A stretch of DNA of 32,000 nt from Cuniculiplasma divulgatum (GTDB taxonomy: Archaea; Thermoplasmatota; Thermoplasmata; Thermoplasmatales; Thermoplasmataceae): assembly GCF_900083515.1 (NCBI RefSeq), contig NZ_LT671858.1:870001-902000 (forward strand). Reading direction: 5' to 3'. Shown here piece after piece: positions 1 to 16,149 of the stretch. Both the position numbers and the translations under genes were made by a program. Position 1 is the first letter of the stretch. Every line of letters starts with the position of its first letter. The notes beneath the pieces are model-generated. The model was not told the DNA's origin, ran no database searches, and saw only the letters and a program-made list of their open reading frames with translations.

Positions 1-1991
1 AGTGGCCTGCTAAAAAAGACATTTGCCTCGCTTCCTTTATTGCCCCTTGTAAACCCTAGATCTTTCATCAGTCGATCGACGGTTTCACTGTTCTGGCGGT
101 AGTATGCTCTCGGGATCGCTATGTTGAATTTATCCCCGTAGATGGAAACGCCGGTATCAGATGCGTTAAGATGAACTCCATGCTCTAGTAATAAATTGAC
201 CGATTCTTCTCCCTGTTCTTTAGTTAGAGGTAATCCATGGAGTGGTTCTTGATTCAGGTTCCTTTCGTCATTATTAGAGTTTTCATTCTGGACGTCGGGT
301 TTTAAAGGGTCTCCTTGCAGGTCTGGACTAAGAGGACGAAGAGGACTATCATTTTGGAAGGGGGGTAACTGATCATTCTCCTTTTTTGATTGCTGAGGCT
401 TTGATTTATTGGCTTTAATATCGTTTTTGCTGTTACTTTGAGTGTGGGGGCTTCCTTTCTCATCGTCCTCATCGTCCTCATCGTCCAAGATTGACTGCTG
501 AGCCTGTTCTATACTGGATAATTTGGCAAGAACAAATTCAGTGTCATATCTCGATCTCAATTCACTGATCTTTTTTTCATCAGGGATCTTTACCACAGTG
601 TAACGTTTTGTGTAGTCCTGATCGTTACCATCGTTTCCTTTCCTAGTCCTTGTTATTCTCGGTCTGTCTGTTTTTAGGCCTAATGCAGATAATATCTTCC
701 CTGCCTGTTTCGCGTAATCCCTTCCAATTTCATCATAAATTGCGCTAAGATATATTCCGGTATAGCTTCTTCCTCCTATACTGTACTGAGCAGTGGCCTC
801 AGGAGAGTCCATTAGCGTCAGGACTTCATTGGCGATAATCCCGTTAGGAGTTTCAGCTGCAACCTGTGCATTCCTTAGTATCTGAGATTTAAGCACGTCC
901 CCTATTTCCGATTTTAGTTCAGGTATGATCTCAAGAAGATCCTCAAAAAATGAAATAACCTCAAAAAGCCTTGGTTCTGTATGAGACTCATACAATTTCA
1001 AAAAATTGCTTCCCTTGATTTCGTTTATTTTATCGTGCCATTTTACCTTGAAATTAAGGAGCATGCCCCTGATTCTTCTGGCATCTCCGGTAAATTGATC
1101 CAGCGTTTTTCCTTTGATTTTCCTAGGTACATCTTCTCTGGCAAGTTCAAAGTCCATGTTTATTTGAAAGCTCTTTGATTCGATGGCATCATCCCTGAAC
1201 GGTGTCCTCCCGGCAAGAACCAACGGCCCAAAGATTCTATAACCTATTATAGCTGAGAATCCCTGCTGGATTTCATTATTTGCGTTGAGTACTAAGGCGT
1301 TCGCGTTATATTTTCCGTTGAGTATGGCAGCTAAGTCATTGTCCATCTGCCCTTTTTCATCCACGAAGAGAGGCGCACCGTACAGGTCAGAAATTCGCTT
1401 AAGAGCAGCTGATTTTATGTCAATAGAATAAAAGCCAAAAGGCGTTATCTCGCATGTTGTCGTTAGCAGTCTGGATTTTCCTTTACCGTAAGGCGCCAAT
1501 ATGTGAATAAAAGGAAAAGATGTATCCTTTAACGCATCAAATATCGCAGCCTTCATTACATATAGAGAAAGAATTATCTCATCCTCCGGTTTCAATTCCA
1601 TGAAAGTGTGAATAAATGCTTTTATTTCGCAATATAGTGCATATTCGCTCTCATATTCAACTGGAGCGGGAGGGAATTTAACAGATTCGAACCTATCTTC
1701 CTTTAGTATCCGATCACGTTTTGTTTGAGCTATCTGCGGAGCAGGCAATATAGTGATTTCTGAATTTTCAGAATCAGGATCCGGAATTTTTACTTCCGGC
1801 ACAACTTCCGTTTGTCCGTTCTTATATTTCAAAAACAACAACGATCCCTTTTCGTCGGTGAACTCACAATAGTGCCAGCCACCGTGAGAAAATCGTGTTT
1901 TGTATAGTTTTTGTTTCTCTTTGTTATCCTGGTCATTTTTCACTGCATCTCTTAGGTCTTTTCCATCTTTTTTAGTCCTATCGTTTGCCAT
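1..1991 (-). CDS. P-loop NTPase, putative replicative helicase of a plasmid/virus-like element (3' end cut by window edge)
   Basis: The minus-strand frame is open from ATG at 1991 to position 1 (663 codons). It is absent from the ORF track, presumably because no stop lies in the window. Hand translation gives Walker A 'LAPYGKGKSRLL' (about 1472-1499) and Walker B-like 'PLFVDEKG'. Its start overlaps the prim-pol stop by 14 nt. It has an acidic/low-complexity tail (DDEDDEDDE, S/N/K/Q/P-rich). Confidence 0.65.
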   Translation of the reverse strand, partial: MANDRTKKDGKDLRDAVKNDQDNKEKQKLYKTRFSHGGWHYCEFTDEKGSLLFLKYKNGQTEVVPEVKIPDPDSENSEITILPAPQIAQTKRDRILKEDRFESVKFPPAPVEYESEYALYCEIKAFIHTFMELKPEDEIILSLYVMKAAIFDALKDTSFPFIHILAPYGKGKSRLLTTTCEITPFGFYSIDIKSAALKRISDLYGAPLFVDEKGQMDNDLAAILNGKYNANALVLNANNEIQQGFSAIIGYRIFGPLVLAGRTPFRDDAIESKSFQINMDFELAREDVPRKIKGKTLDQFTGDARRIRGMLLNFKVKWHDKINEIKGSNFLKLYESHTEPRLFEVISFFEDLLEIIPELKSEIGDVLKSQILRNAQVAAETPNGIIANEVLTLMDSPEATAQYSIGGRSYTGIYLSAIYDEIGRDYAKQAGKILSALGLKTDRPRITRTRKGNDGNDQDYTKRYTVVKIPDEKKISELRSRYDTEFVLAKLSSIEQAQQSILDDEDDEDDEKGSPHTQSNSKNDIKANKSKPQQSKKENDQLPPFQNDSPLRPLSPDLQGDPLKPDVQNENSNNDERNLNQEPLHGLPLTKEQGEESVNLLLEHGVHLNASDTGVSIYGDKFNIAIPRAYYRQNSETVDRLMKDLGFTRGNKGSEANVFFSRP

Positions 1992-2994
1992 CGCTTATTT
2001 CCCCCATAAGTTTCTCCAAGGTCCGGAATCCTTTAACTGGTCCATTCTTTTTAAATGCGTACTTGGCCCCTGAAATGTGGTCTCCACCCTTTCCTGTGAT
2101 TCTTGCGAGTTCAGAAATTACAAATACGGCATCTGCCTCAGTGCCTCCAGAATGTGCGAGAAAGCCGGCAATTGCGAGTGTTAATTCGTTTCGTTTACCG
2201 TCTCCGTTTTTCCAGTAATATAGTAAAATTTTCACGATCTTATCGCGATCTATCTTGGCCGTACCAGTTGGCAATAGTGGTGATCTAGCACTTTTTGTTT
2301 TTCCACTGAATTTCATGACCCATTTTAGAAAGGGCTCTGGAATAGGTCTTATCTTGGTCATATTCAAAAATTCGTATCTGCCATACTGGCCCTGTGAATT
2401 CGGCAAAATTACGTAGCCACCATATCCTTTCAGGTCGAGACCTGGCAACGCAGCAACGTGATTGAATGATGGAATTCCTTCCGGCATTTGAAAATAAAAG
2501 TGAGTACCGCCAGATTGGGTCCTAACCGAGAGAGTACGCAGATGGTCCCCTGTTATGTTTAGTCCAAGAATAAGTTTCTGAAATGATTCCAGCCCTATGC
2601 GCTTGAGTAATCCGTTACTTACTAGCGGGCGCTTCTGCGCATCTTTTTTCACGTCACAGTCTATAACAATTAATTCAGGCGGAATCGCAAAACCAATTGC
2701 TGCGTCAGGATACCTGAACCAGGTCTTGGCGATAATTTTTGTGTCGCTTGTTGCATCCTTGACACCATGGATAAACCCAAGGGAAGGATCCACTATCGGG
2801 GCCTTAGTTCTATCGCACGGAAAGATTCGCCACCTTTTTCTGGTGTAGTTAACCGCCTTTGCAGCCTGTGTTTGATGCTTGTCAATATCAGTCGTCGAAA
2901 ATGTAATAAACGATTTCTCACTACTTACATTTGAGGGTTCGTCACCTTGTATTAAGGGCGGGTTGCAGCCCCTCCCTTCTTCATTTAAGATCAT
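1978..2994 (-). CDS. Bifunctional DNA primase/polymerase (prim-pol, archaeo-eukaryotic primase superfamily) domain protein
   Basis: Prim-pol motifs are in order: 'FPCDRTKAP', 'KDATSD..I..TWF', 'IVIDCDV', 'TQSGGTHFYF', 'LDLKGYGGYVILPNS'. I prefer the start at 2994 (MILNEE) over the track start at 3039. It has AAGGAGGAA 9-17 nt upstream and forms an ATGA overlap with the upstream small ORF. Confidence 0.85.
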   Translation of the reverse strand: MILNEEGRGCNPPLIQGDEPSNVSSEKSFITFSTTDIDKHQTQAAKAVNYTRKRWRIFPCDRTKAPIVDPSLGFIHGVKDATSDTKIIAKTWFRYPDAAIGFAIPPELIVIDCDVKKDAQKRPLVSNGLLKRIGLESFQKLILGLNITGDHLRTLSVRTQSGGTHFYFQMPEGIPSFNHVAALPGLDLKGYGGYVILPNSQGQYGRYEFLNMTKIRPIPEPFLKWVMKFSGKTKSARSPLLPTGTAKIDRDKIVKILLYYWKNGDGKRNELTLAIAGFLAHSGGTEADAVFVISELARITGKGGDHISGAKYAFKKNGPVKGFRTLEKLMGEISDGKR

Positions 2995-3164
2995 TTTTTT
3001 AATTCCTCCTTGTCGTTTGATTCTGCAACACTTAGCCAAGTCACAACTTTGGCAACAAAATCTTCCGCACTTACCTGATCTGGTTCGTTGCGAATTATCT
3101 CGCAGATAGTGCGTCCGTGGTGTAATGATGATATACGTTCTTTTAACGGTCTGATGTTAATCAT
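2991..3164 (-). CDS. Small hypothetical protein (57 aa), translationally coupled to prim-pol
   Basis: Hand translation gives MINIRPLKERISSLHHGRTICEIIRNEPDQVSAEDFVAKVVTWLSVAESNDKEELKK. GGAG lies about 10 nt upstream of the ATG at 3164, and the stop TGA overlaps the prim-pol ATG. It is below the track size cut-off and I recognise no family. Confidence 0.4.
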   Translation of the reverse strand: MINIRPLKERISSLHHGRTICEIIRNEPDQVSAEDFVAKVVTWLSVAESNDKEELKK

Positions 3165-3185
3165 ATATCGTTCTCCACAAGCTGT

Positions 3186-3344
3186 TTAGGCAACTTTTTG
3201 ACTTTCATCGTTAAAATTCCTGATTTTTCCAACTGCTGAAAGAACAAGATACCTAGATGTGCTAATTCCAATTTTCCTAGCTTTCTCAGAGATAATCGCG
3301 TACTCTTCATCTGACATGTACAACATAACTTTTCTTGATAACAT
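3186..3344 (-). CDS. Ribbon-helix-helix (CopG/MobC-like) DNA-binding protein, 52 aa
   Basis: Hand translation gives MLSRKVMLYMSDEEYAIISEKARKIGISTSRYLVLSAVGKIRNFNDESQKVA. This matches the RHH pattern: a beta strand (RKVMLYM), helix 1 (SDEEYAIISEKARK) and helix 2 (ISTSRYLVLSAV). It lies in a different frame from the track ORF 3161..3355, which shows no recognisable features. Confidence 0.55.
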   Translation of the reverse strand: MLSRKVMLYMSDEEYAIISEKARKIGISTSRYLVLSAVGKIRNFNDESQKVA

Positions 3345-3352
3345 ATATATGA

Positions 3353-3379
3353 CAATATTAGAGTTGTATATTAATATTG
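3353..3379. promoter_or_regulatory. Inverted repeat CAATATTA-N11-TAATATTG in the divergent promoter region, candidate RHH operator
   Basis: The perfect 8-bp arms were read directly. The repeat sits 9-35 nt upstream of the RHH ATG (3344) and about 40 nt upstream of the plus-strand gene start. Confidence 0.3.
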
Positions 3380-3417
3380 CTGTATCTAAACGTTATTATA
3401 TGCATATAAAATGTACA

Positions 3418-4335
3418 ATGGTGAAAAAAGTAACACTATACTTGGGCGATGATCTCTTTTCAAGTATACAGAAGCTTAGAGCTTTTTATTTATTCGGGGG
3501 AAGCCATGTATCCGACTTACCGGACGTTTCAGATGTTATAGAAGCTTGTATCTATTATGAAAGATTCTATTTAGAAAAAGACCCGGAAGAAGCAACTATC
3601 CTTAAAAGATATGAATCGGAAGAAAATCCGCTCGAATCTTTAATTAAGCAAGGATCTAAGATCAAATCAAAAGGGGCTGGACGCCTGTTGTTTGCTATTA
3701 GAGAAAATACTCAGCTCGATTTAGATTTTATAAGAGATCTGTGGAAATATAAGGGGACAGATCCTCTTTTGATCAGGGATTTACTAGATAGAGTCTTTAA
3801 TGAATATAATAAAAAAGACATACCCGATTGGGCTAATTTATTTTTAAGAACTTACATTGGCCACTTATACAAACTTAAATTGCGTGAAGCTTTAATCCTT
3901 AGTTTATGTAGTAGCGGTAAGTTACCTATCGAGACACTTACTACGTCTCTCACTGTGGATGCACTCGACATAATCAGGGAAATCGCTCTTGATGAAGGTA
4001 AAATAGAGAGACTTGAAGCAATTATGGGAGATGGGCAAGTAAAAATGAAAACCTCGGGGATTTTTAGCATAAAATGGCAAGATTTTAACGAATATAGAAT
4101 TCTACTGTATAACAAGGAATACACTTTCAACTTTATAGATTCTTACTGGGGTTTCGCATTTGTAATGAAAGATCTTATAAAAACTGGTACAACTACCCCC
4201 ACACCGCCTTCCTTTGTGTTTTTCTTGATAGGGATGATGCTGGATCCAACTGAACACAAATATGTTAAGCAGCTTTTCTTTAGAGAATTGAAAGGTGCCT
4301 TAAAAACAAGTATCCAATTCAACAAGCATCTTTAG
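3418..4335 (+). CDS. Hypothetical protein of the element, N-terminus RHH-like (KKVTLYLGDDLFSSIQKLRA)
   Basis: This is track ORF 3259..4335. The upstream 50 codons overlap the divergent RHH gene and promoter, so the ATG at 3418 (or 3400) is more plausible. I recognise no family for the remaining ~290 aa. Confidence 0.55.
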   Translation: MVKKVTLYLGDDLFSSIQKLRAFYLFGGSHVSDLPDVSDVIEACIYYERFYLEKDPEEATILKRYESEENPLESLIKQGSKIKSKGAGRLLFAIRENTQLDLDFIRDLWKYKGTDPLLIRDLLDRVFNEYNKKDIPDWANLFLRTYIGHLYKLKLREALILSLCSSGKLPIETLTTSLTVDALDIIREIALDEGKIERLEAIMGDGQVKMKTSGIFSIKWQDFNEYRILLYNKEYTFNFIDSYWGFAFVMKDLIKTGTTTPTPPSFVFFLIGMMLDPTEHKYVKQLFFRELKGALKTSIQFNKHL

Positions 4336-4372
4336 TAAGTAGAATCACTGATCTATCGGTAACAAAAATATC

Positions 4373-4380
4373 TTTTTTTT
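4373..4380 (+). terminator. Oligo-T (T8) tract, archaeal-type terminator after the 3418..4335 gene
   Basis: A T8 run lies 38 nt after the stop codon. Archaeal RNAP terminates at oligo-T. Confidence 0.35.
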
Positions 4381-4487
4381 ATTTATCTATTAATATATTC
4401 TAAAACTACCCCCTGATAGGATAGGTTGTTTTATATACCATGAATTTAGAGTATATAAGACCAATAATAAATAGACCATCTTTGGTA

Positions 4488-4519
4488 GTGGATACCTACC
4501 TATCCTTTTAATTAAATAA
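4488..4519. repeat. Composite repeat copy A: gtggatac / cctacctatccttt / ttaattaaataa
   Basis: The 14-mer cctacctatccttt (4495-4508) and the 12-mer ttaattaaataa (4508-4519) recur at 8961-8974 and 8942-8953. The 8-mer gtggatac recurs inverted (gtatccac) at 8934-8941. Confidence 0.35.
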
Positions 4520-4780
4520 ACGGATACCTTGGTATTGACAATCTCATGATCCTTTGCATACTCCAAATAATCCCTCATCATCTAAACCAGTTATCTCAGT
4601 CTCATCAAGGTTTTTTGATTCCTTGCTGATGTATCTTATTCTGTCAGCACTAATGTGTTTCCCGACAACTAAGTTATCGATGTAATCGAATTTGTGATCA
4701 TCATGCCTTACACATCGAACAAGCACATCTCGAAGTTCTGGATAAGGTATCGTGATGGTAAAACCCGGGGGTTCAGGTTA

Positions 4781-6013
4781 TTAAGCATCACTTTGAAGTT
4801 CTATGTCTGAGCGGAGCGAAATAGATTTGAGCAAAATAAATTCAATGACGGAAATTATCATCGCTGAAAAACCAAAAATAAAGATTGTTAACCACTCATT
4901 GTAGTGAGCCAATAGAAATCCAACCAAAGGAAATGCAATAACCATCGGTATTGTTAGAACCAGGTCTTTTATGTTTATCACTTTAGCTCTTTTATCTCTA
5001 GGGACAAGTTTCTGGTACCATACTCTCAAAGGTATATTCAATAATTCAGAAAAAATGCCGTTGATAAGTAAAATTATGGCCATTACAACAATTATTATGC
5101 CTTCGGCGAGAAGAGAAAGACCCATTATTGACATGACTAGCCCCTCTCCAACCGAACCGACAAGTAAATAAGTTAGCAATTTCCCATTTCTCTTTCCAAT
5201 TATTATGGACCCGCCAAGAAGCATTCCAACAAGTTCACAAATGTAAAATATGCTAAGAGAAACCGATCCTATAGATGTGTTTTCTACGGCTATAGTTGGT
5301 ATAATGATTGCCATGCCAGATGTCAAGAAATTGAATGCAAATCCAAAAATAATCGTGTAAAAAATCATTTTTTGACTTTTTAAGAATGCGAATGTTTCTT
5401 TCGTCTCTTTCCAAAAGCGTATCTTTTCTATTTTTTCGAAACTGCTGTATTTCCTCAAGCCGATATATATGATTATCGCAGAAAGTAGAAATGAAGTTGC
5501 GTCCATAAGCAGTAATATACCCCAAGAAATAGAAGAAAATCCCAGTCCGGCTATTACATATCCTCCGATCATTGATGCATTTATACCCATAGACAGAAGT
5601 GCATTGCGTTTGTCAAGATCCTTGTGTACTATGTCTGGGAGTAGTGAAAAATTTGCAGGGTTGTAGAAAGTTTCGCCTATACTTGTTCCTATTACTGCAA
5701 CCACAATAAAAAGCATAAAATAAGTATAAGCAAAAAAATATGACAGGGAAACGGAAAACATTAGGAGGAACATAATAAAATCTGAAAAGAAGAGTCCCTT
5801 CACTCTATTTGTTCTATCTATAAAATATCCACTAACTCCTGTGGATACAATCCAAACCAGAAATTCTGCAGAATAAATCAATCCAAACAGGAAAGTAGAC
5901 CCTGTCACATACAGGATCACAAGTGGTATGACTAATGTTCTTATGCCATCGCCAATGGTTGAAACGGAAGATGACAGAAACAACGAGTAGAAACCGTGGC
6001 TTTCATTATCCAT
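4781..6013 (-). CDS. MFS transporter (DHA3/EntS-like exporter type)
   Basis: The 410-aa protein is hydrophobic throughout, with about 12 predicted TM segments. It has an MFS motif-A-like 'GYFIDRTNRVKG' after TM2. Its ATG lies 1 nt after the stop of the upstream rSAM gene. Confidence 0.85.
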   Translation of the reverse strand: MDNESHGFYSLFLSSSVSTIGDGIRTLVIPLVILYVTGSTFLFGLIYSAEFLVWIVSTGVSGYFIDRTNRVKGLFFSDFIMFLLMFSVSLSYFFAYTYFMLFIVVAVIGTSIGETFYNPANFSLLPDIVHKDLDKRNALLSMGINASMIGGYVIAGLGFSSISWGILLLMDATSFLLSAIIIYIGLRKYSSFEKIEKIRFWKETKETFAFLKSQKMIFYTIIFGFAFNFLTSGMAIIIPTIAVENTSIGSVSLSIFYICELVGMLLGGSIIIGKRNGKLLTYLLVGSVGEGLVMSIMGLSLLAEGIIIVVMAIILLINGIFSELLNIPLRVWYQKLVPRDKRAKVINIKDLVLTIPMVIAFPLVGFLLAHYNEWLTIFIFGFSAMIISVIEFILLKSISLRSDIELQSDA

Positions 6014-6014
6014 T

Positions 6015-7085
6015 TTAGATACCAGTTTCTTTCATTATTCTTTTGGTAAGATGGCAAATAAGCGGATCTGGACTGGCCGGTTTTCCTGACAAGATTGAGG
6101 TGTACGGACATCCCAAGCTACAGATATTCAGATATGAACATTCCATGCATGAGCCTTTCGTATACCTGGTAACAAGATCCATCCAATCTGAAAAAACAGG
6201 GGATAGATACAGTGTTTTAAGAGAATCAACATCTCCTATTGGTTCAGCATAAGGCGGCTCAGAAAGTGCAATGCATGGGGATATATTTCCGTTTGGATGT
6301 ATTACAATTTGCCCGTCGAATCCTCCACAGTATAATGATGTTCTTCCTTCGAAAATTGGCTTTATAAAATTGTCATAGAATTCGCCTGTCACTAACCTAT
6401 GTTTTTCAATGAGCTTCTTATTTACATCCATTATTGTATCGGTCAGTTGTTTTAAATTCATGTTTTTTAAGTAGTATGGATAATTTAAATTTACTGTTTT
6501 AACACGAAAATGATTCAACAAATATTCAATAGTGTGGAATAAATTATGTATATTATGTTCATCCAGAGTAACAGCGATTTGATAGTTAACGCTTTTAATT
6601 TCTAGAAGCCTAATCTTCGGCTCTATAAAATCATAAGAACCGTGTCCATTAGAGAACACCCTCATGGTGTCATTTGTTTCTTTGTCTCCATCTAAGGACA
6701 CCATTACAGAAATGTTTTCTGCCTTTATGAAATCTACGATTTTATCTGTTAACAGGGTTCCGTTTGTGGCCAACGCAAAATCAGCATCCAATCCAATTTC
6801 TTTGGTGTATGCAACAATTTTTTTAATTTTATCAAAATGTAAAATTGGTTCACCACCGTAGAATCTTATACTCAAGTGATGCTTTTCTTTTACGATGAGG
6901 TCAAGTAATTTGTAAATCCCATGTATATCCAATTCGGTACTATCTTTCGGCATAAAACAGTATTTACAACGTAGATTACAGTCGTGCCCGAGAATTACAT
7001 ACAGATAATCTCCAAAGTGATTAAATTCATTAAACTTGAATATACTATTTCCGGTTAAGTTATTTATATCCTTGTCGAACTGCAT
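6015..7085 (-). CDS. Radical SAM enzyme with C-terminal SPASM domain
   Basis: It has CxxxCxxC 'CNLRCKYC' and the SPASM motif 'CGGFDGQIVIHPNGNISPC' (C-x12-G-x4-C). This is followed by 'CMECSYLNICSLGC' (Cx2Cx5Cx3C) and a later Cys. It overlaps the upstream rSAM gene by 22 nt. Confidence 0.85.
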   Translation of the reverse strand: MQFDKDINNLTGNSIFKFNEFNHFGDYLYVILGHDCNLRCKYCFMPKDSTELDIHGIYKLLDLIVKEKHHLSIRFYGGEPILHFDKIKKIVAYTKEIGLDADFALATNGTLLTDKIVDFIKAENISVMVSLDGDKETNDTMRVFSNGHGSYDFIEPKIRLLEIKSVNYQIAVTLDEHNIHNLFHTIEYLLNHFRVKTVNLNYPYYLKNMNLKQLTDTIMDVNKKLIEKHRLVTGEFYDNFIKPIFEGRTSLYCGGFDGQIVIHPNGNISPCIALSEPPYAEPIGDVDSLKTLYLSPVFSDWMDLVTRYTKGSCMECSYLNICSLGCPYTSILSGKPASPDPLICHLTKRIMKETGI

Positions 7086-8092
7086 AAAGGATCACGTGCC
7101 CCCACATCACCGGTTCTGGCTAAGGCTACAGCTGGACATCCAACGCAAATATCTGAATAGGTACATCCCTCACATTTATTTCTGTTTTGAACTATTTTTC
7201 TCCATTCAATTGCAGTTTTTGAACCCCAAATGCACTCTAAGTCTGTGTTCAATAAATTATCTGTCGGTTCTTGAATAAAATTACAGGGTAGTATATTTCC
7301 AGCCGGGTCAATGAATATTCTATTCGAAAATATACCACAATTATGTCTATTTTCCCACGTTTTTCTCTGTTCTCGAATTAATGGTACTAATACATTAGGG
7401 TCAACGAGAAAAGAAAATGGGTAATTTAAAGAGAGGTTAAAATTCTTCTCGTGAGACCTATAGATATTATAAAACATTTGAGTGAAAGTTTCTAATTGAG
7501 ATGAAGTTATAAACAAATTTCTATCCAGTAACTTCCCGGCACCTATTGGTTCCAGAGTGGATATAGTCAAACCTTTAGCACCAATATCTTTACACAAATC
7601 AATCATTTTAGTCAAATGCTTATAATTATCGGATGTTAAATTCCAATTTATATCAAAATTAATATTTTCATTTTTCAAACTCCTTAAATTATAGATAGTT
7701 TTAGCAAAGGTGCCTTTTCCTCTCGTTCGGTCGTGAAATTCTTCATTATAACCATCCAGGCTCACTGATATATTACTTATCTTATCTGCGTATTTTTCTA
7801 CGACTTTTATTATTCTGTCCGAGAAAAGCGTTCCATTGCTGTTAATACTTATGTCAAAGTCAAGATCACCCAATTTTTTAAGAATATCTTGCCAGTCCTT
7901 TGCTAAAAAAAACTCTCCACCAGTTAGCCCAATTTCCTTTATATTATAGGAAGAGAGTCTTTCAGCAACTTTGAACTTCTGATGCGTACTCAACTCTTCA
8001 ACAGAATTTATATGATTACCCCTGTTGGCACAATAAATACATTTAAGATTGCATTTATTTGTAAAAGTCCAAGTTGCAACAGTAGGGAGCAT
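7064..8092 (-). CDS. Radical SAM enzyme with C-terminal SPASM-like domain
   Basis: It has 'CNLKCIYC' only 13 aa from the N-terminus. It also has 'CGIFSNRIFIDPAGNILPC' (C-x12-G-x4-C), 'CEGCTYSDICVGC' (Cx2Cx5Cx2C variant) and a terminal 'DPLCSS'. Confidence 0.85.
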   Translation of the reverse strand: MLPTVATWTFTNKCNLKCIYCANRGNHINSVEELSTHQKFKVAERLSSYNIKEIGLTGGEFFLAKDWQDILKKLGDLDFDISINSNGTLFSDRIIKVVEKYADKISNISVSLDGYNEEFHDRTRGKGTFAKTIYNLRSLKNENINFDINWNLTSDNYKHLTKMIDLCKDIGAKGLTISTLEPIGAGKLLDRNLFITSSQLETFTQMFYNIYRSHEKNFNLSLNYPFSFLVDPNVLVPLIREQRKTWENRHNCGIFSNRIFIDPAGNILPCNFIQEPTDNLLNTDLECIWGSKTAIEWRKIVQNRNKCEGCTYSDICVGCPAVALARTGDVGARDPLCSSTRI

Positions 8093-8135
8093 TAAACATC
8101 TCTAACAAAAAAAGAAGAGAAATTTAAAGATGTAA

Positions 8136-8258
8136 TTAAGCAATTTTTTGGCTTTTGCACTTCATACATGCTGTGACAAAACCTATCTCATTGAATTTCC
8201 CATATACTTCATGCAGTGTCTTTTCTCCCCATATCTCGTCATCTTTTTGTTTATTCAT
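8136..8258 (-). CDS. Small ORF (40 aa), candidate precursor peptide for the adjacent rSAM/SPASM enzymes
   Basis: Hand translation gives MNKQKDDEIWGEKTLHEVYGKFNEIGFVTACMKCKSQKIA. It lies 43 nt upstream of the first rSAM gene on the same strand, with a TATA-like tract upstream. It has an acidic N-terminal half and a basic C-terminal half with two Cys. It is not in the ORF track (<60 aa). Confidence 0.4.
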   Translation of the reverse strand: MNKQKDDEIWGEKTLHEVYGKFNEIGFVTACMKCKSQKIA

Positions 8259-8285
8259 TTTTCATTACCGAAATATGATTGTAAA

Positions 8286-8303
8286 CATATATATATAATT
8301 TTT
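8286..8303 (-). promoter_or_regulatory. TATA-like box (minus-strand AAATTATATATATAT) for the small-ORF/rSAM/MFS operon
   Basis: The tract is centred about 36 nt upstream of the ATG at 8258. That spacing is compatible with an archaeal TATA at -26/-27 and a short leader. Confidence 0.3.
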
Positions 8304-8662
8304 CTTATGTGACATATGGCGGAAATATATGGCGTCAGAATCGGGTTAGATTTCCTGTCATTTCGTTCTGTAAGTGCACGTTAAAATTGCCTTAATAACG
8401 TGGTTTTTAATCGAACTCTCAAGTATATCGGTTGTTTATAATAGTAGTGTACATATAAACTACTACAATGTCATTCAAAAGAAGAATAAAGAGGGGTGAC
8501 CGGATCTCTCACCGAACGAACTCCTTGACATTATAGAGAAGATGGAGTATCACGTGAGCAGGGATAACCCTAAGGCTCTCGGAATTAGTTACCGTTTTAA
8601 AAAAGGATATTACGCCTACCTTAACTAAGCCAGGAAATCGAGGATGCATAAAGATGCAGTGA

Positions 8663-8902
8663 ATGCGAGAAAAACTTAAGAGCCTGAATACGAAGGAGAG
8701 GAAGGTAGATAACTTAAACTTCCAGATTAGTGATCTAAACTATATGTGGACTTTCGAACCCGGAAAAGACAAGCACTCTTTTTTTGGAGACAATTTTTGC
8801 TTCCATTTGAGCTATGGAAAATTCACTGAAGCAAATGACTTTAGAATCACAGTCTTTAATTGTGGCTGGGATTCAAAAATTAATCCTTGTGATGAATGTT
8901 AG
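8663..8902 (+). CDS. Hypothetical small protein (79 aa), C-terminal CxxxxxxxxxCxxC-like Cys residues
   Basis: This is a track ORF only and I recognise no motif. Short broken reading frames lie upstream of it. Confidence 0.3.
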   Translation: MREKLKSLNTKERKVDNLNFQISDLNYMWTFEPGKDKHSFFGDNFCFHLSYGKFTEANDFRITVFNCGWDSKINPCDEC

Positions 8903-8933
8903 AAGGAATAGGTTAATGGAGCATAAGCATTTA

Positions 8934-8974
8934 GTATCCACTTAATTAAATAATCTGCTCCCTACCTATCCTTT
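8934..8974. repeat. Composite repeat copy B: gtatccac / ttaattaaataa / cctacctatccttt
   Basis: See copy A. The same blocks occur in a different order. Together the two copies bracket the rSAM/MFS cluster plus ORF 8663..8902. Confidence 0.35.
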
Positions 8975-9119
8975 ACCAATTAGTATCAAATACCCTTATG
9001 CCTAACACAGGTATCTTATATTTAGATTTCTGGAGTGCTGTTGATTCTATCACTAATAGTAATAAGGTGTGAAATCTCGTTTACTACGCCCTTGAAAATT
9101 TAGTTTTTTATTTTGTTTC

Positions 9120-10907: not shown

Positions 10908-11212
10908 TTAAAAAATCAATATATTATGCTTCTATTAAACATTTTTAAGTATGATACTCAAATGCAATTTCTTAGTGATGATCCATGCTAAAATCAATAA
11001 GGAAAGCTGTGGAAAAAATAGAACGTTTTTAGAATTTGTAGTCAAAGAAAACCATTGCAAAGATAGATAATATATTGTACAATCAAATACTAGCATATTA
11101 CCACTAAAAGGGTTGTAATATCCTTTTTCTATTAACAATAATGATATGAAAGGTTTTAGGGAAGATTAATCTATAAATGAACATAAGTGATCTAGGTAAG
11201 TAAAGTGATACT

Positions 11213-12262
11213 ATGATTAAAATTATTACTGATTCTACCATAAAAACTGGGGTTGGGAGATATGCATTAAACCTCTCCATTGCACTTTCGGCAGAACTTA
11301 TTTCCCTCAGAAAGGACAACAGCAAAAAATTGAGTGATTATGGGGGAACAATAATGAATGGTATAAGGACTGGAGGAATAACTTCTGGTTATTATCTTAA
11401 TGAAAGATACTCAAAATTGGCGTTTAGAAATTGTGAGAGATACCTTAAAAAGAGTCAGGTCGATGATATGATACTTCACTATTCCAATCCAGGCATTAGG
11501 AAATTTGATCTTAAAGTCCAAGAAGTGGTTACATTTCACGATCTTTTTCCTCTGAAAAATAAAGGACCGGGGAAGATTGAGAAAATTAAGGTTAAAAATT
11601 TTTTGTCCTTTATGAATTCAGGCAATATATTAACAATTTCTAACGTTGTCATGAATGATCTTAAAAAGTATGGATTCAAAGGAAACATTCAGGTTATACA
11701 TCATCCAGTATCTCAAAATTTTAGAAAATTATCAGAATCAAAGGAATCCATAAGAAAAAAACTCAATTTACCTATTAATAAGAAATTAATTCTCAGCGTT
11801 TCAACCGCGGCGTTGAACAAAAATCTTAATGTAGTTCAGAAAACCCTAAAACTCCTTGGGAACAACTACAATCTGGTAAGAGTTGGACCGGAATTAAATG
11901 ACTCGATTAACTTCCAAAATATAGATGAAGAACAGTTAAATATGATCTATAACGCGTGTGATGTCCTACTAATTCCATCATCATCAGAAGGATTCGGTTT
12001 TCCAGTTATAGAGGCTTTTGCAACTGGTCTTCCTGTAGTTGCCTCAGACATAGAAATATTTAGAGAAATCACACGAGATAGTGCAATTTTATCCAAAATC
12101 GACCCAGAAGAACTCAGTCATTCCGTGGTTAATGCTATTGATCAAAGAGAAGCGTATTCAAATAAAGGCCTGGAAACAGCTAAATATTACAGTTTTGACA
12201 ATTTTAAAAATAATGTTAGAAGTTATTATTCAAAGAACTTTGGGATAAATTTTAATGAATAG
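11213..12262 (+). CDS. Glycosyltransferase, GT4 (GT-B fold) family
   Basis: The C-terminal domain carries the E-x7-E motif 'SSEGFGFPVIEAFATGLPVVASD'. The size is 349 aa. Confidence 0.8.
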   Translation: MIKIITDSTIKTGVGRYALNLSIALSAELISLRKDNSKKLSDYGGTIMNGIRTGGITSGYYLNERYSKLAFRNCERYLKKSQVDDMILHYSNPGIRKFDLKVQEVVTFHDLFPLKNKGPGKIEKIKVKNFLSFMNSGNILTISNVVMNDLKKYGFKGNIQVIHHPVSQNFRKLSESKESIRKKLNLPINKKLILSVSTAALNKNLNVVQKTLKLLGNNYNLVRVGPELNDSINFQNIDEEQLNMIYNACDVLLIPSSSEGFGFPVIEAFATGLPVVASDIEIFREITRDSAILSKIDPEELSHSVVNAIDQREAYSNKGLETAKYYSFDNFKNNVRSYYSKNFGINFNE

Positions 12263-12435
12263 TAAGTTTTTATAAAACACATCCAACCTATATAAATTTT
12301 GAAGCAAGTACTTTTATTTAGTTTCCAATGGATTTTTACAATCTTCCAGTCTAATATATTTTGTTTGTAAAAATACCAAGTCTAGTGATGAGGTGTATAC
12401 TTTTTGTAATCGACATGAATTCATTTATAGAGAAA

Positions 12436-12513
12436 TTTATCGATTATAAACATTAGCAGCGATTTTAAATTGATAACTTATATGTACTATAATCAATTTA
12501 GATAATCGATAAA
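12436..12513. promoter_or_regulatory. 12-bp inverted repeat pair TTTATCGATTAT ... ATAATCGATAAA upstream of the hemerythrin-like gene
   Basis: The arms lie at 12436-12447 and 12502-12513 and are exact reverse complements. Each is centred on palindromic ATCGAT. The second arm ends 23 nt before the ATG. Confidence 0.3.
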
Positions 12514-12535
12514 TACGTAATAAAGATTCAAAGAT

Positions 12536-12967
12536 ATGGATACAGGAAACTACTCCAAAGATGTACATAAACAATCAAGGTTATGGTTAAAAAAGATTAT
12601 GGGTGATTTAGAAGGAGGTACCTTGGATTTAGATCTCTACAATGATTTTCAAACAGAATTAAAGGATCACATTTTTGAGGAGGAAACTTTTATTTTTAAG
12701 ATGTTTAAAGAAAATGGGAAATTAAAGAATGAAATCTTAGGATTAGAGACGGAACATGCAGCGATGTGGAGATTGACTAATCTCATAAATTCGGAGATTG
12801 AAACGAAAAGATTTCAAAAAATAGAGAAATATTTTGATGAATTATTTCGAATACTTACTCAGCATAATGAACGGGAAGAACAGCTAATATACTCAAACCT
12901 CGCCGATTCTATACATGTTGCTGCGAAAAGGCCACAGGATTGGGTTTGCAGAAAGTTAATATCGTAA
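12536..12967 (+). CDS. Hemerythrin-like (HHE cation-binding) domain protein
   Basis: Paired H/E motifs 'DHIFEEE', 'ETEHAAMW' and 'TQHNEREEQ' are spaced as in a four-helix hemerythrin-like domain. Confidence 0.6.
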   Translation: MDTGNYSKDVHKQSRLWLKKIMGDLEGGTLDLDLYNDFQTELKDHIFEEETFIFKMFKENGKLKNEILGLETEHAAMWRLTNLINSEIETKRFQKIEKYFDELFRILTQHNEREEQLIYSNLADSIHVAAKRPQDWVCRKLIS

Positions 12968-13066
12968 TTTAATTAAATTGAAAGCGCATCTAAGAATGCA
13001 CAAAAAATAATCAATTCCGTTTTAAATTATGTTAAAGCATATATCCATTAATTAAATTAACTTATT

Positions 13067-14785
13067 ATGACCCAGACAAATGACTTCTATAAAAGAAAAT
13101 TAAATGAAGCTGTTGAGAGAAACAGCAGGAATCAAAGTTCAAAGGAAAAAAAATGGAGAGATTATACGTTAGAACCCTGGAACAAGAAGACTAAATATAA
13201 GGAGAAGAAATATGTTAATTCGTCTAATATAAATATAAAAGACCTTTACACAAAAGAAGACGTTCCACAGAATGAGGAATACTTACTGGGCTTTCCGGGA
13301 GAATATCCCTTTACCAGAGGAGTCTACCCTAATATGTATCGTGGAAAATACTGGACCATGAGGATGTTTTCAGGATTTGGAACACCGGAAGATACGAATT
13401 CCAGACTAAAATATCTCATTTCACATGGGGAAACGGGACTTAGTATAGCTTTTGATATGCCTACTCTTTATGGATACGATTGCGATAATGTTAGGTCAGA
13501 GGGTGAGATTGGAAAATGCGGCGTAAATGTAACTTCACTGAAAGATATGGAAGTTGTATTTGATGGAATAGATCTTTCGAAAGTAACAACATCGATGACC
13601 ATAAATGCCCCTGCGGCAGTTCTTACTGCTATGTATTTTGCAATAGCTCAAAAAAAAGGAATTAGTCTTGATAAAATAGGTGGAACAGTACAGGCTGATA
13701 TACTTAAAGAATACATAGCACAAAAGGAATGGATTTATCCACCTGAAGCCCACTTGAGAATTATAAGGGATATGATGATTTACTGCACTGAAAATGCCCC
13801 AAAGTGGAATTATATAAGCATTTCTGGTTATCATATAAGGGAAGCGGGGGCAAGTGCCGTCCAGGAACTTGCATTCACACTTGCAGATGGTTTTTATTAC
13901 GTTGACATGGGTATAAAGGCAGGTCTCGATCCGAATAAATTTGCTCCAAGATTGTCCTTTTTCTTTAATTCTTCAATTAACTTCTTTGAGGAAATAGCAA
14001 AAATGAGAGCAGCCAGGAGAATATGGGCAACAGTACTAAAAGAGAAGTTTGGAGTAACAGATCCACGTGCTCAGATGCTTCGTTTTCACACTCAAACTTC
14101 AGGATATACATTAACCTGGCAGCAGCCCCTCAATAACATCATAAGGACAACTGTAGAGGCTATGGCAGCAGTGCTTGGGGGTACACAAAGTTTACATACA
14201 AATTCTTATGATGAAGCCATGGCACTACCATCTGAGGATGCAGTGAAGATAGCTCTTAGAACCCAACAGATTTTAGCCGAAGAAACTGGAATAACTGATA
14301 CAATAGATCCTCTAGCTGGATCTTATTATATGGAAGCCTTAACCAATAAGGTAGAAGAGGAAGCCTACAGGTACTTTGATAAGATAGAGTCTATGGGCGG
14401 TATCCTTAATGCAGTCAAAAATGGTTATATTCAAAGAGAGATAGCTGCAACCTCTTATAGAAGGCAAAAAAGACTCGAATCTGGAGAAGAAATAATGGTC
14501 GGTGTTAATAAATATGTTGAGGAAAATGAAAAGCCAATCAATATTCTAAAGATATCAAGGGAAGCCGAAAAGATCCAACTTGCGAGACTAAAAAAAGTTA
14601 AGGAACTAAGAAATGAGGATGAGGTAAGAAAGGCACTGGAAGAATTGAGGAATGCATTCAAGGATGAAAACAAAAATATCATGCCTTATCTTATAGAGGC
14701 TGCTAAGGAGTACGCCACAATCGAAGAAATATCAAATGTTGGGAGGGAAATATATGGTGGATGGAAAGAACCAGTCATTGTTTAA
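13067..14785 (+). CDS. Methylmalonyl-CoA mutase, large (catalytic, substrate-binding) subunit
   Basis: The canonical N-terminal motifs 'FPGEYPFTRGVYPNMYRGKYWTMRMFSGFGTPEDTN' and 'GETGLSIAFDMPTLYGYD' are present. The 572-aa protein lacks the B12 domain, which is the split archaeal form. Confidence 0.95.
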   Translation: MTQTNDFYKRKLNEAVERNSRNQSSKEKKWRDYTLEPWNKKTKYKEKKYVNSSNINIKDLYTKEDVPQNEEYLLGFPGEYPFTRGVYPNMYRGKYWTMRMFSGFGTPEDTNSRLKYLISHGETGLSIAFDMPTLYGYDCDNVRSEGEIGKCGVNVTSLKDMEVVFDGIDLSKVTTSMTINAPAAVLTAMYFAIAQKKGISLDKIGGTVQADILKEYIAQKEWIYPPEAHLRIIRDMMIYCTENAPKWNYISISGYHIREAGASAVQELAFTLADGFYYVDMGIKAGLDPNKFAPRLSFFFNSSINFFEEIAKMRAARRIWATVLKEKFGVTDPRAQMLRFHTQTSGYTLTWQQPLNNIIRTTVEAMAAVLGGTQSLHTNSYDEAMALPSEDAVKIALRTQQILAEETGITDTIDPLAGSYYMEALTNKVEEEAYRYFDKIESMGGILNAVKNGYIQREIAATSYRRQKRLESGEEIMVGVNKYVEENEKPINILKISREAEKIQLARLKKVKELRNEDEVRKALEELRNAFKDENKNIMPYLIEAAKEYATIEEISNVGREIYGGWKEPVIV

Positions 14786-15200
14786 GGACAAACCCATAAA
14801 AGTTCTGCTTGCAAAACCCGGGATTGATGGACATGACAGAGGAATACTTGTTCTAGCAAGGGCATTCAGAGATGCTGGGATGGAGGTACTGTATGCTGGA
14901 CTTCTTCCAACGCCAGAGGAGGTAATAGATACAGCTGTGAATGAGGATGTGGATGTGGTTGCCCTAAGTTTATTGAATGGTGCCCATATGACCGTTTTCA
15001 AAAAGGTTGCTGAAATAATGAAATCAAGGAATATAGACGACATAGCCCTCGTTGGTGGGGGAACCATTCCAGACGAAGATAAGCCTGAACTCGAAAAGAT
15101 GGGTATAACTGGTAACTACGGCCCCGGAACGCCCCTATCTGTCATCATAGATCATGTAACAAAAAGAGCCAGTGAAGCAAGGGAGCGAAAGATCAGGTGA
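14754..15200 (+). CDS. Methylmalonyl-CoA mutase, small B12-binding subunit
   Basis: It has the DxHxxG motif 'GIDGHDRG' and 'LVGGGTIP'. I prefer the ATG at 14754, preceded by GGGAGG, over the track start at 14736. It overlaps the large-subunit stop. Confidence 0.9.
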   Translation: MVDGKNQSLFKDKPIKVLLAKPGIDGHDRGILVLARAFRDAGMEVLYAGLLPTPEEVIDTAVNEDVDVVALSLLNGAHMTVFKKVAEIMKSRNIDDIALVGGGTIPDEDKPELEKMGITGNYGPGTPLSVIIDHVTKRASEARERKIR

Positions 15201-16149
15201 TTTCACGGATATAGACGATCTGATCAGAAGGATTAGGGAAGGAGATAAGCAGGCGATAGCAAGATCCATTTCACTGGTTGAGGGTGCAAATATGATCCTC
15301 AAAAAGGAACTTCTTACTAAGCTTTATCCCTACACAGGACACTCTCAGGTAGTTGGGATCACTGGTCCTCCAGGAATAGGAAAAAGTACTCTTATAGGAA
15401 ATTTATCCTCGCTAATAAAGAATTCTGGGAAATCTGTTGCGGTTTTGGCCATAGACGCATCCAGTCCGTACACTGGTGGCTCATTGCTTGGAAATAGAAT
15501 CAGGATGCAGGAACAACTCTGGGAAAATAAAATCTATATGAGGAGTCTTGCAAATAGGGGGACAAAGGGGGGACTTGCCGATTCGGCTCTTGGTTCAGTG
15601 AGTATTCTTGATGCATCAGGTTTTGATTATATAATTATAGAAACTGTGGGAGCTGGCCAAGCCGATCTGGACATAATGAATCTAGCTGATACAACTATTC
15701 TTATACTGGCTCCTGGACTCGGAGATCAGGTACAGGCTATTAAGGCTGGAATTATGGAAATAGCTGATATATTTGATATAAATAAGATGGATAGAGACGG
15801 ATCCTATTTTGCAATGAAAGACATCGAGGAGACCCTATCACTCGATGAGAATCGAAGCTTTCCAAGGGAGGTTGTAGGTTCCACAAATACAAACCTAGAA
15901 AGTTATAAAGAACTTTTTGCCGCCATTAACCGACATAGAAAATACCTTGAGGGTTCTGATCAACTAGGAAAAAAGAGGCTTGATTTTGGGTTGAAGTGGG
16001 TTCTGGAATCAGAACTAAGAGAGAAGCTTATAGAGCCCATTATAGAGAGATTTCATCAAAGGGAGAAAAATAAAAGAGGCAACTATTATCAAGATATAGA
16101 CCATTTAATATCGAATATTAACATAGAAGACCTGATGGAAAAAATTTAG
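15172..16149 (+). CDS. meaB: MeaB/ArgK-type G3E GTPase (mutase chaperone)
   Basis: It has the P-loop 'GPPGIGKST', 'ETVGAGQ' and the NKxD-like motif 'INKMD'. It sits immediately downstream of the mutase subunits. The GTG start overlaps the preceding gene. Confidence 0.9.
   Translation: MKQGSERSGDFTDIDDLIRRIREGDKQAIARSISLVEGANMILKKELLTKLYPYTGHSQVVGITGPPGIGKSTLIGNLSSLIKNSGKSVAVLAIDASSPYTGGSLLGNRIRMQEQLWENKIYMRSLANRGTKGGLADSALGSVSILDASGFDYIIIETVGAGQADLDIMNLADTTILILAPGLGDQVQAIKAGIMEIADIFDINKMDRDGSYFAMKDIEETLSLDENRSFPREVVGSTNTNLESYKELFAAINRHRKYLEGSDQLGKKRLDFGLKWVLESELREKLIEPIIERFHQREKNKRGNYYQDIDHLISNINIEDLMEKI

Follow-up and report, generated by a model that had tools for sequence, protein, structure and literature searches.

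A candidate radical SAM peptide cassette at a tRNA-Cys gene in the archaeon Cuniculiplasma divulgatum S5

Introduction

Does an archaeal locus with two radical S-adenosylmethionine (SAM) enzymes beside a very small open reading frame (ORF) make a modified peptide, or does it encode heme or lipid enzymes next to an incidental reading frame? We addressed this question for a 32,000-nucleotide (nt) stretch of Cuniculiplasma divulgatum S5 (contig NZ_LT671858.1, positions 870,001 to 902,000; hereafter the window), in which the minus strand carries a 40-codon ORF, two radical SAM/SPASM enzymes (rSAM1 and rSAM2) and a transporter of the major facilitator superfamily (MFS). An earlier note on this DNA had proposed a cluster for a ribosomally synthesised peptide that is modified after translation (RiPP). 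The proposal is supported by our analysis, as neither enzyme reached the cut-off of a cofactor or lipid family and the small ORF is conserved and under purifying selection. We consider it likely that window positions 4492 to 8975 are a horizontally mobile, strain-variable RiPP cassette inserted in the 3′ end of a tRNA-Cys gene, with a product that is exported.

The earlier note had also described such loci as rarely reported in archaea. This is correct for characterised systems, of which there are none, and not for predicted ones, since antiSMASH surveys predict many radical SAM-type clusters ('ranthipeptide', 'sactipeptide') in archaea. A 2025 survey names two haloarchaeal lanthipeptides as the only RiPPs of archaea that had been validated before it, and treats the radical SAM-type clusters purely as predictions. 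None of the papers searched describes this cassette, the peptide it encodes or its mobility. Genomic islands and their association with tRNA genes are treated in general terms in the Cuniculiplasma genome paper, and 'radical SAM' does not occur in its main text (PMC5155288).

Results

A compact four-gene cluster

An ORF check of the window placed all four minus-strand ORFs where the earlier note had put them. Their geometry was as described, with a 43-nt gap between the peptide gene and rSAM1, a 22-nt overlap of rSAM1 and rSAM2, and 1 nt between rSAM2 and the MFS gene. In the direction of transcription, the features are as follows.

8287 to 8306, minus strand: putative archaeal promoter, an A-rich stretch resembling a TFB recognition element (BRE) plus the TATA-like box TTATATATATAT (sequence reading)
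8136 to 8258, minus strand: candidate precursor peptide gene, 40 amino acids, MNKQKDDEIWGEKTLHEVYGKFNEIGFVTACMKCKSQKIA (orthologues in contigs L003/L006 and L007)
8093 to 8135, minus strand: 43-nt spacer with a T-run (TTCTCTTCTTTTTTTG) 3′ of the peptide stop codon, a possible leaky archaeal terminator (sequence reading)
7064 to 8092, minus strand: rSAM1, radical SAM/SPASM enzyme, 342 amino acids, AhbD/PqqE/SkfB-like branch (NCBIfam, family profile, AlphaFold2/Foldseek)
6015 to 7085, minus strand: rSAM2, radical SAM/SPASM enzyme, 356 amino acids, CteB/PapB/anSME branch, without a RiPP recognition element (RRE) (NCBIfam, PDB, AlphaFold2/Foldseek)
4781 to 6013, minus strand: MFS transporter, 410 amino acids, DHA3/EntS-like, presumed exporter and self-protection (Pfam)

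The rSAM1, rSAM2 and MFS proteins are identical to SIM58905.1, SIM58881.1 and SIM58853.1 of C. divulgatum S5, and the 40-amino-acid ORF is annotated by NCBI as a hypothetical protein. In line with the earlier reading as two radical SAM/SPASM enzymes and an MFS protein, Pfam returned Radical_SAM and SPASM domains for both enzymes, and MFS_1 (88.6 bits) and MFS_3 (32.2 bits), both above their gathering scores, for the transporter. When compared to NCBIfam, the transporter scored 144 bits with TIGR00900 (cut-off 319.6) and 39 bits with EntS (cut-off 324). The putative promoter lies about 30–48 nt upstream of the peptide ATG in the window sequence. A sigma-70 promoter and terminator scan was uninformative for an archaeon. 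Rfam and tRNA scans of the whole window gave no match.

The peptide gene is conserved beside diverged enzymes

The arrangement is not a chance juxtaposition, because diverged loci repeat it with the small ORF included. The earlier note had suggested looking for the small ORF next to orthologues of the enzymes. It is conserved there, as three diverged variants lie directly upstream of rSAM1, beside enzymes with only 56–64% identity. The peptide reads MKGPTSNDVWNTEVLQQVYKNFEKIGFVTACMNCRKQTI in L003/L006 and MNGPNNIDHVWSMETAREVRRNFEKIGFVFACRNCRKQKI in L007. In the three aligned peptides, W10, V18, F22, I25-G26-F27-V28, A30, C31, C34, Q37 and I39 are invariant, which gives the core IGFVxACxxC(K/R)xQxI. 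In the C-terminal half, the proportion of synonymous differences (pS) was 0.70–0.95, near saturation, versus 0.13–0.28 for non-synonymous differences (pN). The dN/dS values of the enzymes were 0.09–0.19. This substitution pattern indicates that the small ORF is a real, conserved gene under purifying selection.

The order rSAM1-rSAM2-MFS with overlapping genes was found in L001/L002 and in L003/L006, and the MFS gene is retained 3′ of rSAM2 in L001, L003 and L006; L007 is a short contig that ends after rSAM2. L001/L002 (L001 7040–8163) carry a decayed cluster that lacks the peptide and the N-terminal ~110 residues of rSAM1 but has rSAM2 and the MFS gene intact.

A T-run follows the peptide stop codon in all three loci (window, L006 and L007). 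A TA-rich element precedes the peptide gene in L007 and, as a (TA)n run, in L003/L006, where the window has the short TTATATATATAT; this run may serve as a TATA element. It is long and lies at the contig ends of L003 (1–30) and L006 (1–38), immediately 5′ of the peptide gene, and it probably breaks assemblies.

Relatives of the locus are very few. Among 5.8 billion proteins, rSAM2 had four close relatives (100, 81, 75 and 63% identity) before a drop to 29%, and rSAM1 showed the same distribution of few close relatives and a sharp fall in identity. The peptide family is extremely rare, with two clusters in the same collection. A library of 1.84 billion representatives held no peptide relatives beyond artefacts; the phmmer matches P0243 and P0244 were rejected as such, because they result from a weak match multiplied by exact tandem repeats. 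A degenerate DNA pattern for the peptide found one, already known, contig among metagenome contigs and none among viral contigs, and the viral contigs held no relative of rSAM2 either. When genome contigs were scanned with an rSAM2 alignment, the matches listed contained Clostridia enzymes of ~30% identity and no archaeal orthologue. By similarity rather than annotation, the Clostridia enzymes appear to be SCIFF-type maturases. A wider spread of the architecture was considered and rejected: more distant homologues of the two enzymes (P0005, P0125, P0126) have unrelated neighbourhoods, and the architecture is thus confined to a small clade. The nearest distant relatives of rSAM2 and rSAM1 (29–32% identity; L089/L090) adjoin small PEP-utilizer (PF00391) proteins and unannotated ORFs. 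These contigs look archaeal from neighbours such as PcrB and archease, and may represent another uncharacterised radical SAM system.

Two SPASM enzymes without a leader-binding domain

The CxxxCxxC, C-x12-G-x4-C and Cx2Cx5Cx2/3C motifs listed by the earlier note are present in the enzymes. Its count of 13 residues before the SAM motif of rSAM1 was right, while rSAM2 has 35 and not 36. The radical SAM and SPASM cysteines are invariant or nearly so in the family alignments of both enzymes (A3, A4). Pfam gave no PqqD match in rSAM1 or rSAM2, and neither enzyme shows an RRE. In NCBIfam, neither reached any curated cut-off, and the best matches were mostly peptide maturases.

rSAM2 carries C36xxxC40xxC43, C253-x12-G-x4-C271 and C313x2Cx5Cx3C326, plus C344, and so has seven SPASM cysteines. 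Its best NCBIfam match was PapB (NF047865; 154.1 bits, cut-off 340), and it scored 127.6 bits with the SCIFF maturase (TIGR03974; cut-off 425), 118 with QhpD (453), 96.8 with anSME (TIGR03942; 349.45) and 71 with RumMC (720). YhhB and DynA also appeared among the matches. The best PDB sequence match was the thioether synthase CteB (E 1e-26), in an alignment that begins at CteB residue 101, past its N-terminal peptide-binding domain. Cysteines 253/271/313/316/322/326/344 of rSAM2 mirror CteB 344/362/400/403/409/413/432. Three of them (C253/C271/C326) align with C344/C362/C413 of CteB, the three-Cys pattern of auxiliary cluster I (Aux I), and C313/C316/C322/C344 align with C400/C403/C409/C432, the four-Cys pattern of Aux II. 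The eighth Cys of anSME (CGmngTCTC stretch) is absent. CteB, PapB and Tte1186 bind the substrate Cys at the open iron of Aux I (PMC10177961; PMC10452713). The AlphaFold2 model of rSAM2 had a predicted local distance difference test (pLDDT) score of 89.1 and its top Foldseek matches were CteB, anSME (template modelling score, TM, 0.80) and ChlB. Together, the models of both enzymes matched CteB, anSME, ChlB, TigE, SuiB and SkfB.

rSAM1 carries C14xxxC18xxC21, C252-x12-G-x4-C270 and C307x2Cx5Cx2C319, plus C337. Its seven conserved SPASM cysteines have the spacing CX17CX36CX2CX5CX2CX17C, which is typical of AhbD; compared with the AhbD motif of methanogens, rSAM1 lacks the first cysteine of Aux I. 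AhbD (TIGR04545) was also the best NCBIfam match, with 149 bits at an equivalog cut-off of 500. It was followed by TIGR04053 (129 bits, cut-off 395), NirJ2 (117, 500), the sactipeptide maturase StsB (110, 625), NirJ (100, 515), PqqE (93, 381), AhbC (82, 650), the sactipeptide maturase AlbA (80, 850) and NirJ1 (73, 650); MftC was among the matches as well. Identity to proteins named heme b synthase was ~25%. Among solved structures, SkfB scored best, both for rSAM1 alone and for a 71-sequence family profile (E 8e-61), followed by PqqE, CteB, SuiB and anSME. The AlphaFold2 model (pLDDT 90.7) had SkfB, SuiB and anSME as top Foldseek matches.

The cluster lies on a cassette flanked by attachment sites

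The exact 40-amino-acid peptide was found on 23 contigs. We defined the cassette ends by aligning ten of these contigs to the window. All ten share the block from 8975 to 4492 at 99.9–100% identity with identical breakpoints, while their flanks differ. Copies that are 99.9% identical thus stand in at least three genomic contexts. There are two upstream contexts, either the MCM, hemerythrin, GT4 and MFS2 genes of the window or small ORFs accompanied by a regulator of the ArsR type and an IS1634 transposase, and at least four different continuations downstream of 4492. The cassette has the following features.

4492 to 8975, minus strand: whole cassette, 4,484 bp (block shared between contigs with differing flanks, blastn)
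4495 to 4507, minus strand: core of the attachment (att) site on the MFS side (AAGGATAGGTAGG), reverse complement of the tRNA-Cys 3′ end (repeat count, junctions)
4508 to 4529, no strand assigned: inner arm motif on the MFS side (TTAATTAAATAAACGGATAC), inverted copy of the arm at the other end (repeat family D1, junction alignments)
8663 to 8902, plus strand: divergent ORF of 79 amino acids, CSP5_0919, with four cysteines, ending in NPCDEC (ORF call)
8935 to 8957, no strand assigned: inner arm motif on the peptide side (in cluster orientation CAGATTATTTAATTAAGTGGATA) (repeat family D1, junction alignments)
8961 to 8973, minus strand: att core on the peptide side (AAGGATAGGTAGG), within the duplicated 16-nt tRNA-Cys 3′ end (8959–8974)

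The att core has exactly two matches in the window, versus 0.03 expected. The reading of a 29-nt direct repeat as probable chance was rejected, since the repeat marks the cassette ends. In the window, the MFS-side core is a hybrid junction with a second integrated element, whereas in L092 and L096 the downstream core copy forms the 3′ terminus of tRNA-Cys(GCA). The complete sister genome L102 (CP133596.1) has the empty site, with the order GT4, MFS2, 110-amino-acid ORF, tRNA-Cys and ADH and a single core, and L092 corresponds to L102 with 4,450 bp inserted and 16 nt duplicated. Both marks of a tRNA-targeted element, a direct repeat of the tRNA 3′ end and a matching empty site, are thus present. 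For the excised cassette, the predicted circular junction would be GTATCCGTTTATTTAATTAAAAGGATAGGTAGGGAGCAGATTATTTAATTAAGTGGATAC.

By protein-cluster membership, the cassette proteins occur among named genomes only in S5 and the metagenome-assembled genome (MAG) GCA_054610455.1, and it is in this sense that the cassette is absent from PM4. The flanking MFS2 and GT4 genes are present in S5, PM4, G-plasma, C_DKE and others. Two tRNA-Cys genes that lie beside 99.9%-identical cassettes were compared and differ at several positions. This difference indicates recent transfer between genomes.

A 438-amino-acid protein, named site-specific integrase by NCBI, starts just outside the cassette in L093, L095, L097, L099 and L101. 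Fragments of integrases were seen elsewhere: in L001/L002, a 91-residue fragment that is 49% identical to the N-terminus of the 438-residue integrase takes the place of the missing peptide and rSAM1 start, right after a tRNA-Leu(CAG) gene, and in L006 a 157-residue C-terminal fragment lies 400 nt after the MFS gene. Beyond the latter, L006 and L105 (MTML01000064.1; 4763–5629) carry a further radical SAM gene (254–288 amino acids, without SPASM).

The 79-amino-acid ORF CSP5_0919 always accompanies the cassette, is alone in its protein cluster and had no homologue in the collections searched. Searches of Pfam, NCBIfam and PDB sequences gave no match to it and no support for a hidden RRE/PqqD domain, and this candidate was dropped. 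The ORF may serve in immunity or regulation, or may itself be a second substrate. The 400-nt divergent region contains two more small ORFs (8374–8499, plus strand, hydrophobic; 8509–8649, minus strand). At the other end, a short ORF (4390–4581, minus strand; MMRDYLEYAKDHEIVNTKVSVYLIKRIGR...) starts inside the cassette and crosses the att junction, so that its C-terminus differs in every genomic context. In the otherwise 99.9%-identical cassette of L096 (5660–6598), rSAM2 is called as 312 instead of 356 amino acids, which may reflect a start-proximal mutation and a possible pseudogene variant in the natural population.

Neighbouring elements and a different module in G-plasma

Window positions 1–4491 belong to a second element, which is inserted in tandem at the same tRNA-Cys att site. 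Its genes in the window are listed below.

1994 to 3, minus strand: open frame of more than 664 amino acids that runs off the window
1978 to 3039, minus strand: PrimPol
3186 to 3344, minus strand: NikA-like ribbon-helix-helix protein
3259 to 4335, plus strand: 358-amino-acid ORF without a family

A search among plasmids gave no match to the PrimPol element. From the spacing of accession numbers, about 27 genes lie between the MFS and ADH genes in S5. On the other side, window positions 13067–16149 hold an ordinary methylmalonyl-CoA mutase operon (large subunit, B12-binding subunit and MeaB GTPase) that, with its hemerythrin and glycosyltransferase neighbours, is core genome, with 99.6% or higher identity to sister strains.

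G-plasma (L103, ATDV01000001.1) does not differ from the empty-site genome as far as the att core and then carries a three-gene module (11027–13748) in the order 431-residue radical SAM/SPASM enzyme, 31-residue ORF and EntS-like MFS pump. The enzyme is DynA/anSME/DarW-like, with ~55–65 residues before the SAM motif; it scored 182 bits with DynA (cut-off 450) and 172 with anSME (349) and is 25% identical to rSAM2. The 31-residue ORF (MRTVINIYGNGETFTISAAPEEEYIEPLVCA) ends in EPLVCA, and the pump is not orthologous to the MFS protein of the window. More small ORFs of an integrated element follow the pump gene. Next to the core, the S5 and G-plasma cassettes both start with the arm motif ATTATTTAATTAA..GGATAC, and the S5 cassette closes with an inverted copy of it. 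We read these matching arms as a shared recombination site, at which the peptide-maturase-pump cargo would be exchangeable.

The G-plasma assembly is entered in the 2025 survey with a 'ranthipeptide' region on ATDV01000006.1. We considered whether this is the S5 cluster or its L006 version and rejected both, because G-plasma lacks the S5 cassette and L006 is MTML01000064.1 from another assembly; the listed region is another locus.

Discussion

A modified, exported peptide as the preferred reading

The general marks of radical SAM/SPASM RiPP systems are found here, namely the SAM motif with a SPASM domain and a co-located, conserved short precursor gene. From the sequence evidence, the peptide would be the substrate of the enzymes, and by analogy with related maturases its two invariant cysteines would be cross-linked through thioethers. 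Either label for the system, sactipeptide or ranthipeptide, is unproven. The export of the product, its biological role and the integrase that moves the cassette are likewise proposals, whereas the gene content, the conserved peptide, the folds and cysteine-ligand patterns of the enzymes, their separation from the AhbD, Gms and anSME families and the strain-variable insertion are established by the analysis.

We propose the following scheme. The promoter upstream of the 40-codon gene would drive transcription, and the T-run after it might let short peptide transcripts outnumber read-through into the translationally coupled rSAM1-rSAM2-MFS genes, with the peptide probably in excess over the enzymes. 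Since neither enzyme has an RRE, both would recognise the peptide directly, by its conserved C-terminal half (F22..IGFVxACxxC(K/R)xQxI). Each would install one oxidative cross-link, most likely by binding C31 or C34 at the open iron of a three-Cys Aux I and forming a thioether from Cys sulfur to carbon, as CteB, PapB and Tte1186 do. The DHA3/EntS-like pump would then export the product and protect the producer, and the product would most plausibly serve competition or signalling between strains.

Several observations weigh against this reading. The peptide has two cysteines and matches no known precursor family in NCBIfam or Pfam; it has neither the six-Cys SCIFF pattern nor the repeated CX3D motif of ranthipeptide precursors. 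Conservation is concentrated in its C-terminal half, an unusual pattern for RiPPs guided by a leader, and the conservation statistics are drawn from three variants only. As the earlier note had already pointed out, the cassette contains no protease and no PqqD/RRE gene (Pfam, NCBIfam and PDB sequence searches), and it also contains no recognisable leader-cleavage motif. In the short contigs L004/L005, a convergent minus-strand ORF follows rSAM2 where others have the MFS gene. At family level, rSAM1 matches the heme enzyme AhbD best, and the spacing in its SPASM domain fits the AhbD pattern. Finally, no integrase is encoded within 4492–8975. The missing RRE is not disqualifying, because anSME and the triceptide synthase ChlB, which have the same size and fold, lack it as well.

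Alternative explanations

The alternative that survives best is a RiPP cassette with a chemistry other than thioethers. One or both enzymes could form C–C cross-links (three-residue cyclophanes on W10, F22 or F27, or links like those of streptide or darobactin), epimerise residues or perform another radical modification, and the cysteines would then serve some other purpose. The fit of the rSAM2 model to SuiB and to the RRE-less ChlB, a multiple cyclophane synthase, is nearly as good as its fit to CteB, and YhhB and DynA are among the NCBIfam matches. In addition, three invariant aromatic residues of the peptide are each followed by two residues, as in Omega-X-X motifs. However, the top sequence matches of rSAM2, which are PapB, the SCIFF maturase, QhpD and CteB, all form thioethers, the peptide has two invariant cysteines, and both enzymes show the three-Cys Aux I pattern of substrate-Cys binding. 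We regard a cassette of this kind as unlikely on balance, while C–C cyclophane chemistry for one or both enzymes is a serious alternative.

It is improbable that the enzymes act on something else, either a protein, as anSME does, or a small molecule, with the 40-residue product being a regulator, an immunity factor or another small protein. Both enzymes have the size and fold of anSME without a peptide-recognition domain, and C31-x-x-x-(K/R)35 of the peptide loosely recalls the sulfatase motif CxPxR. On the other hand, the anSME score is 97 bits against a cut-off of 349, the eighth anSME cysteine is missing, and the cassette contains no sulfatase or other candidate target. Moreover, no complete locus has the enzymes without the peptide, and the peptide is most conserved in its Cys-containing core.

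The earlier note had raised AhbC/AhbD-type heme synthesis or lipid modification as an alternative. Here, rSAM1 would be a heme enzyme of the AhbD/NirJ type or a Gms-type cross-linker of glycerol dialkyl glycerol tetraethers (GDGT), rSAM2 an accessory protein and the small ORF incidental. In its favour are the AhbD match and cysteine spacing described above, and C. divulgatum is cited among the producers of glycerol monoalkyl glycerol tetraethers (GMGT) (PMC11214058). Gms is itself an AhbD homologue (36% identity, E 7e-79), defined by a ~100-residue N-terminal COG4001 lipid domain (PMC11214058). With 13 residues before its SAM motif, rSAM1 has no room for this domain and is set apart from Gms by the published definition. 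Its scores are far from the cut-offs (AhbD 149 of 500, AhbC 82 of 650, NirJ 100 of 515), identity to named heme b synthases is ~25%, and it has the full SPASM motif that AhbDs of non-methanogenic archaea lack (PMC10452713). AhbD is expected as a housekeeping gene in all strains, whereas these genes were found in S5 and one MAG only and are part of an insertion that varies between strains and is missing from sister genomes of 98.7–98.8% average nucleotide identity (PMC5155288), with an empty site in a sister genome. A housekeeping enzyme would not sit on such an insertion, and this decisively weakens the alternative, as does a small ORF that is conserved and under selection. We consider it very improbable.

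An intracellular cofactor or redox mediator made from the peptide and not exported, like PQQ or mycofactocin, is just as hard to sustain: PqqE and MftC are among the rSAM1 matches (PqqE being the second-best PDB profile match), the cassette has no protease or leader-cleavage motif and L004/L005 have the convergent ORF in place of the MFS gene, but no PqqD/MftB-type chaperone, partner dehydrogenase or trimming peptidase is encoded in the cassette, three of four lineages have an EntS/DHA3-like MFS gene coupled to rSAM2, and strain-variable mobile carriage is unusual for a cofactor pathway.

Significance of the cassette

An exported, cross-linked peptide made by a mobile cassette is thus the reading we prefer. 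No radical SAM peptide product has yet been characterised in archaea, and S5 is a strain that can be cultured in the laboratory. The system is compact, with four genes in 4.5 kb, a defined candidate precursor and a cultured host, and nearly identical strains that lack the cassette or carry a different module at the same site provide controls for both chemistry and ecology. It would show how two SPASM enzymes without leader-binding domains recognise one peptide, and the locus is an archaeal case of secondary-metabolite cargo that moves on small att-flanked modules. An antagonistic or signalling product, if that is what is made, would bear on strain competition in acid mine drainage and on the association of Cuniculiplasma with archaeal Richmond Mine acidophilic nanoorganisms (ARMAN).

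A broader scenario is conceivable, and we offer it tentatively. The tRNA-Cys gene of Cuniculiplasma and related Thermoplasmatales may be a docking site for integrase-less peptide/maturase/pump cassettes that have common att arms, are swapped between strains and are moved in trans by the 438-residue integrase. Close relatives among these acidophiles, which have no cell wall, would then carry different exported, cross-linked peptides directed against each other or towards their ARMAN/Micrarchaeota partners, and the S5 product would be the first representative of a class, in archaea, for which two RRE-less SPASM enzymes act on a two-cysteine core.

Comparison with known systems

The closest likeness is to CteB, PapB and Tte1186, together with QhpD. 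rSAM2 has the same fold, a full SPASM domain with Cx2Cx5Cx3C and 3+4 auxiliary cysteines, and its best sequence matches among them, and in the CteB, PapB and Tte1186 systems a short Cys-containing peptide is encoded beside the enzyme, as here. It differs from them in an identity below 30% and in scores far below the equivalog cut-offs, and it lacks the ~100-residue N-terminal RRE of CteB. The S5 precursor has two cysteines instead of the six of SCIFF peptides and no CX3D or SCIFF motif. Unlike ranthipeptide systems, the S5 system includes a second, unrelated SPASM enzyme, an archaeal host and a mobile cassette.

Among sactipeptide systems, SkfA/SkfB is the nearest, as SkfB is the best solved relative of rSAM1 and an export function is encoded alongside. 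SkfB, however, combines a Twitch domain with a peptide-binding domain at its N-terminus; in rSAM1 a full 7-Cys SPASM domain is present and the N-terminal domain is missing. Two radical SAM maturases in one locus are known from thuricin CD (TrnC/TrnD); the S5 cassette has a single precursor gene. With AhbD and Gms, rSAM1 has the C-terminal cysteine spacing CX2CX5CX2CX17C in common, but its gene lies on an accessory mobile element and not at a housekeeping locus, and is paired with a conserved peptide gene. It also has Aux I cysteines not present in the AhbDs of non-methanogenic archaea. The compact radical SAM plus SPASM build without an N-terminal domain is that of anSME, ChlB, YhhB and XncB (~360–375 residues; TM 0.75–0.80). 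From anSME and the triceptide synthases, the S5 enzymes are separated by scores below the family cut-offs, the missing eighth anSME cysteine and the lack of a sulfatase gene.

As a mobile element, the cassette resembles archaeal tRNA-targeted elements, archaeal genomic islands and bacteriocin islands in its direct repeat of the tRNA 3′ end and its precise empty site. It also shares with them the tandem insertion of other elements at its att site and the alternative cargo there in sister strains. The S5 cassette differs in its size of only 4.48 kb and in being without an integrase of its own, the 438-residue integrase lying just outside it in some contexts.

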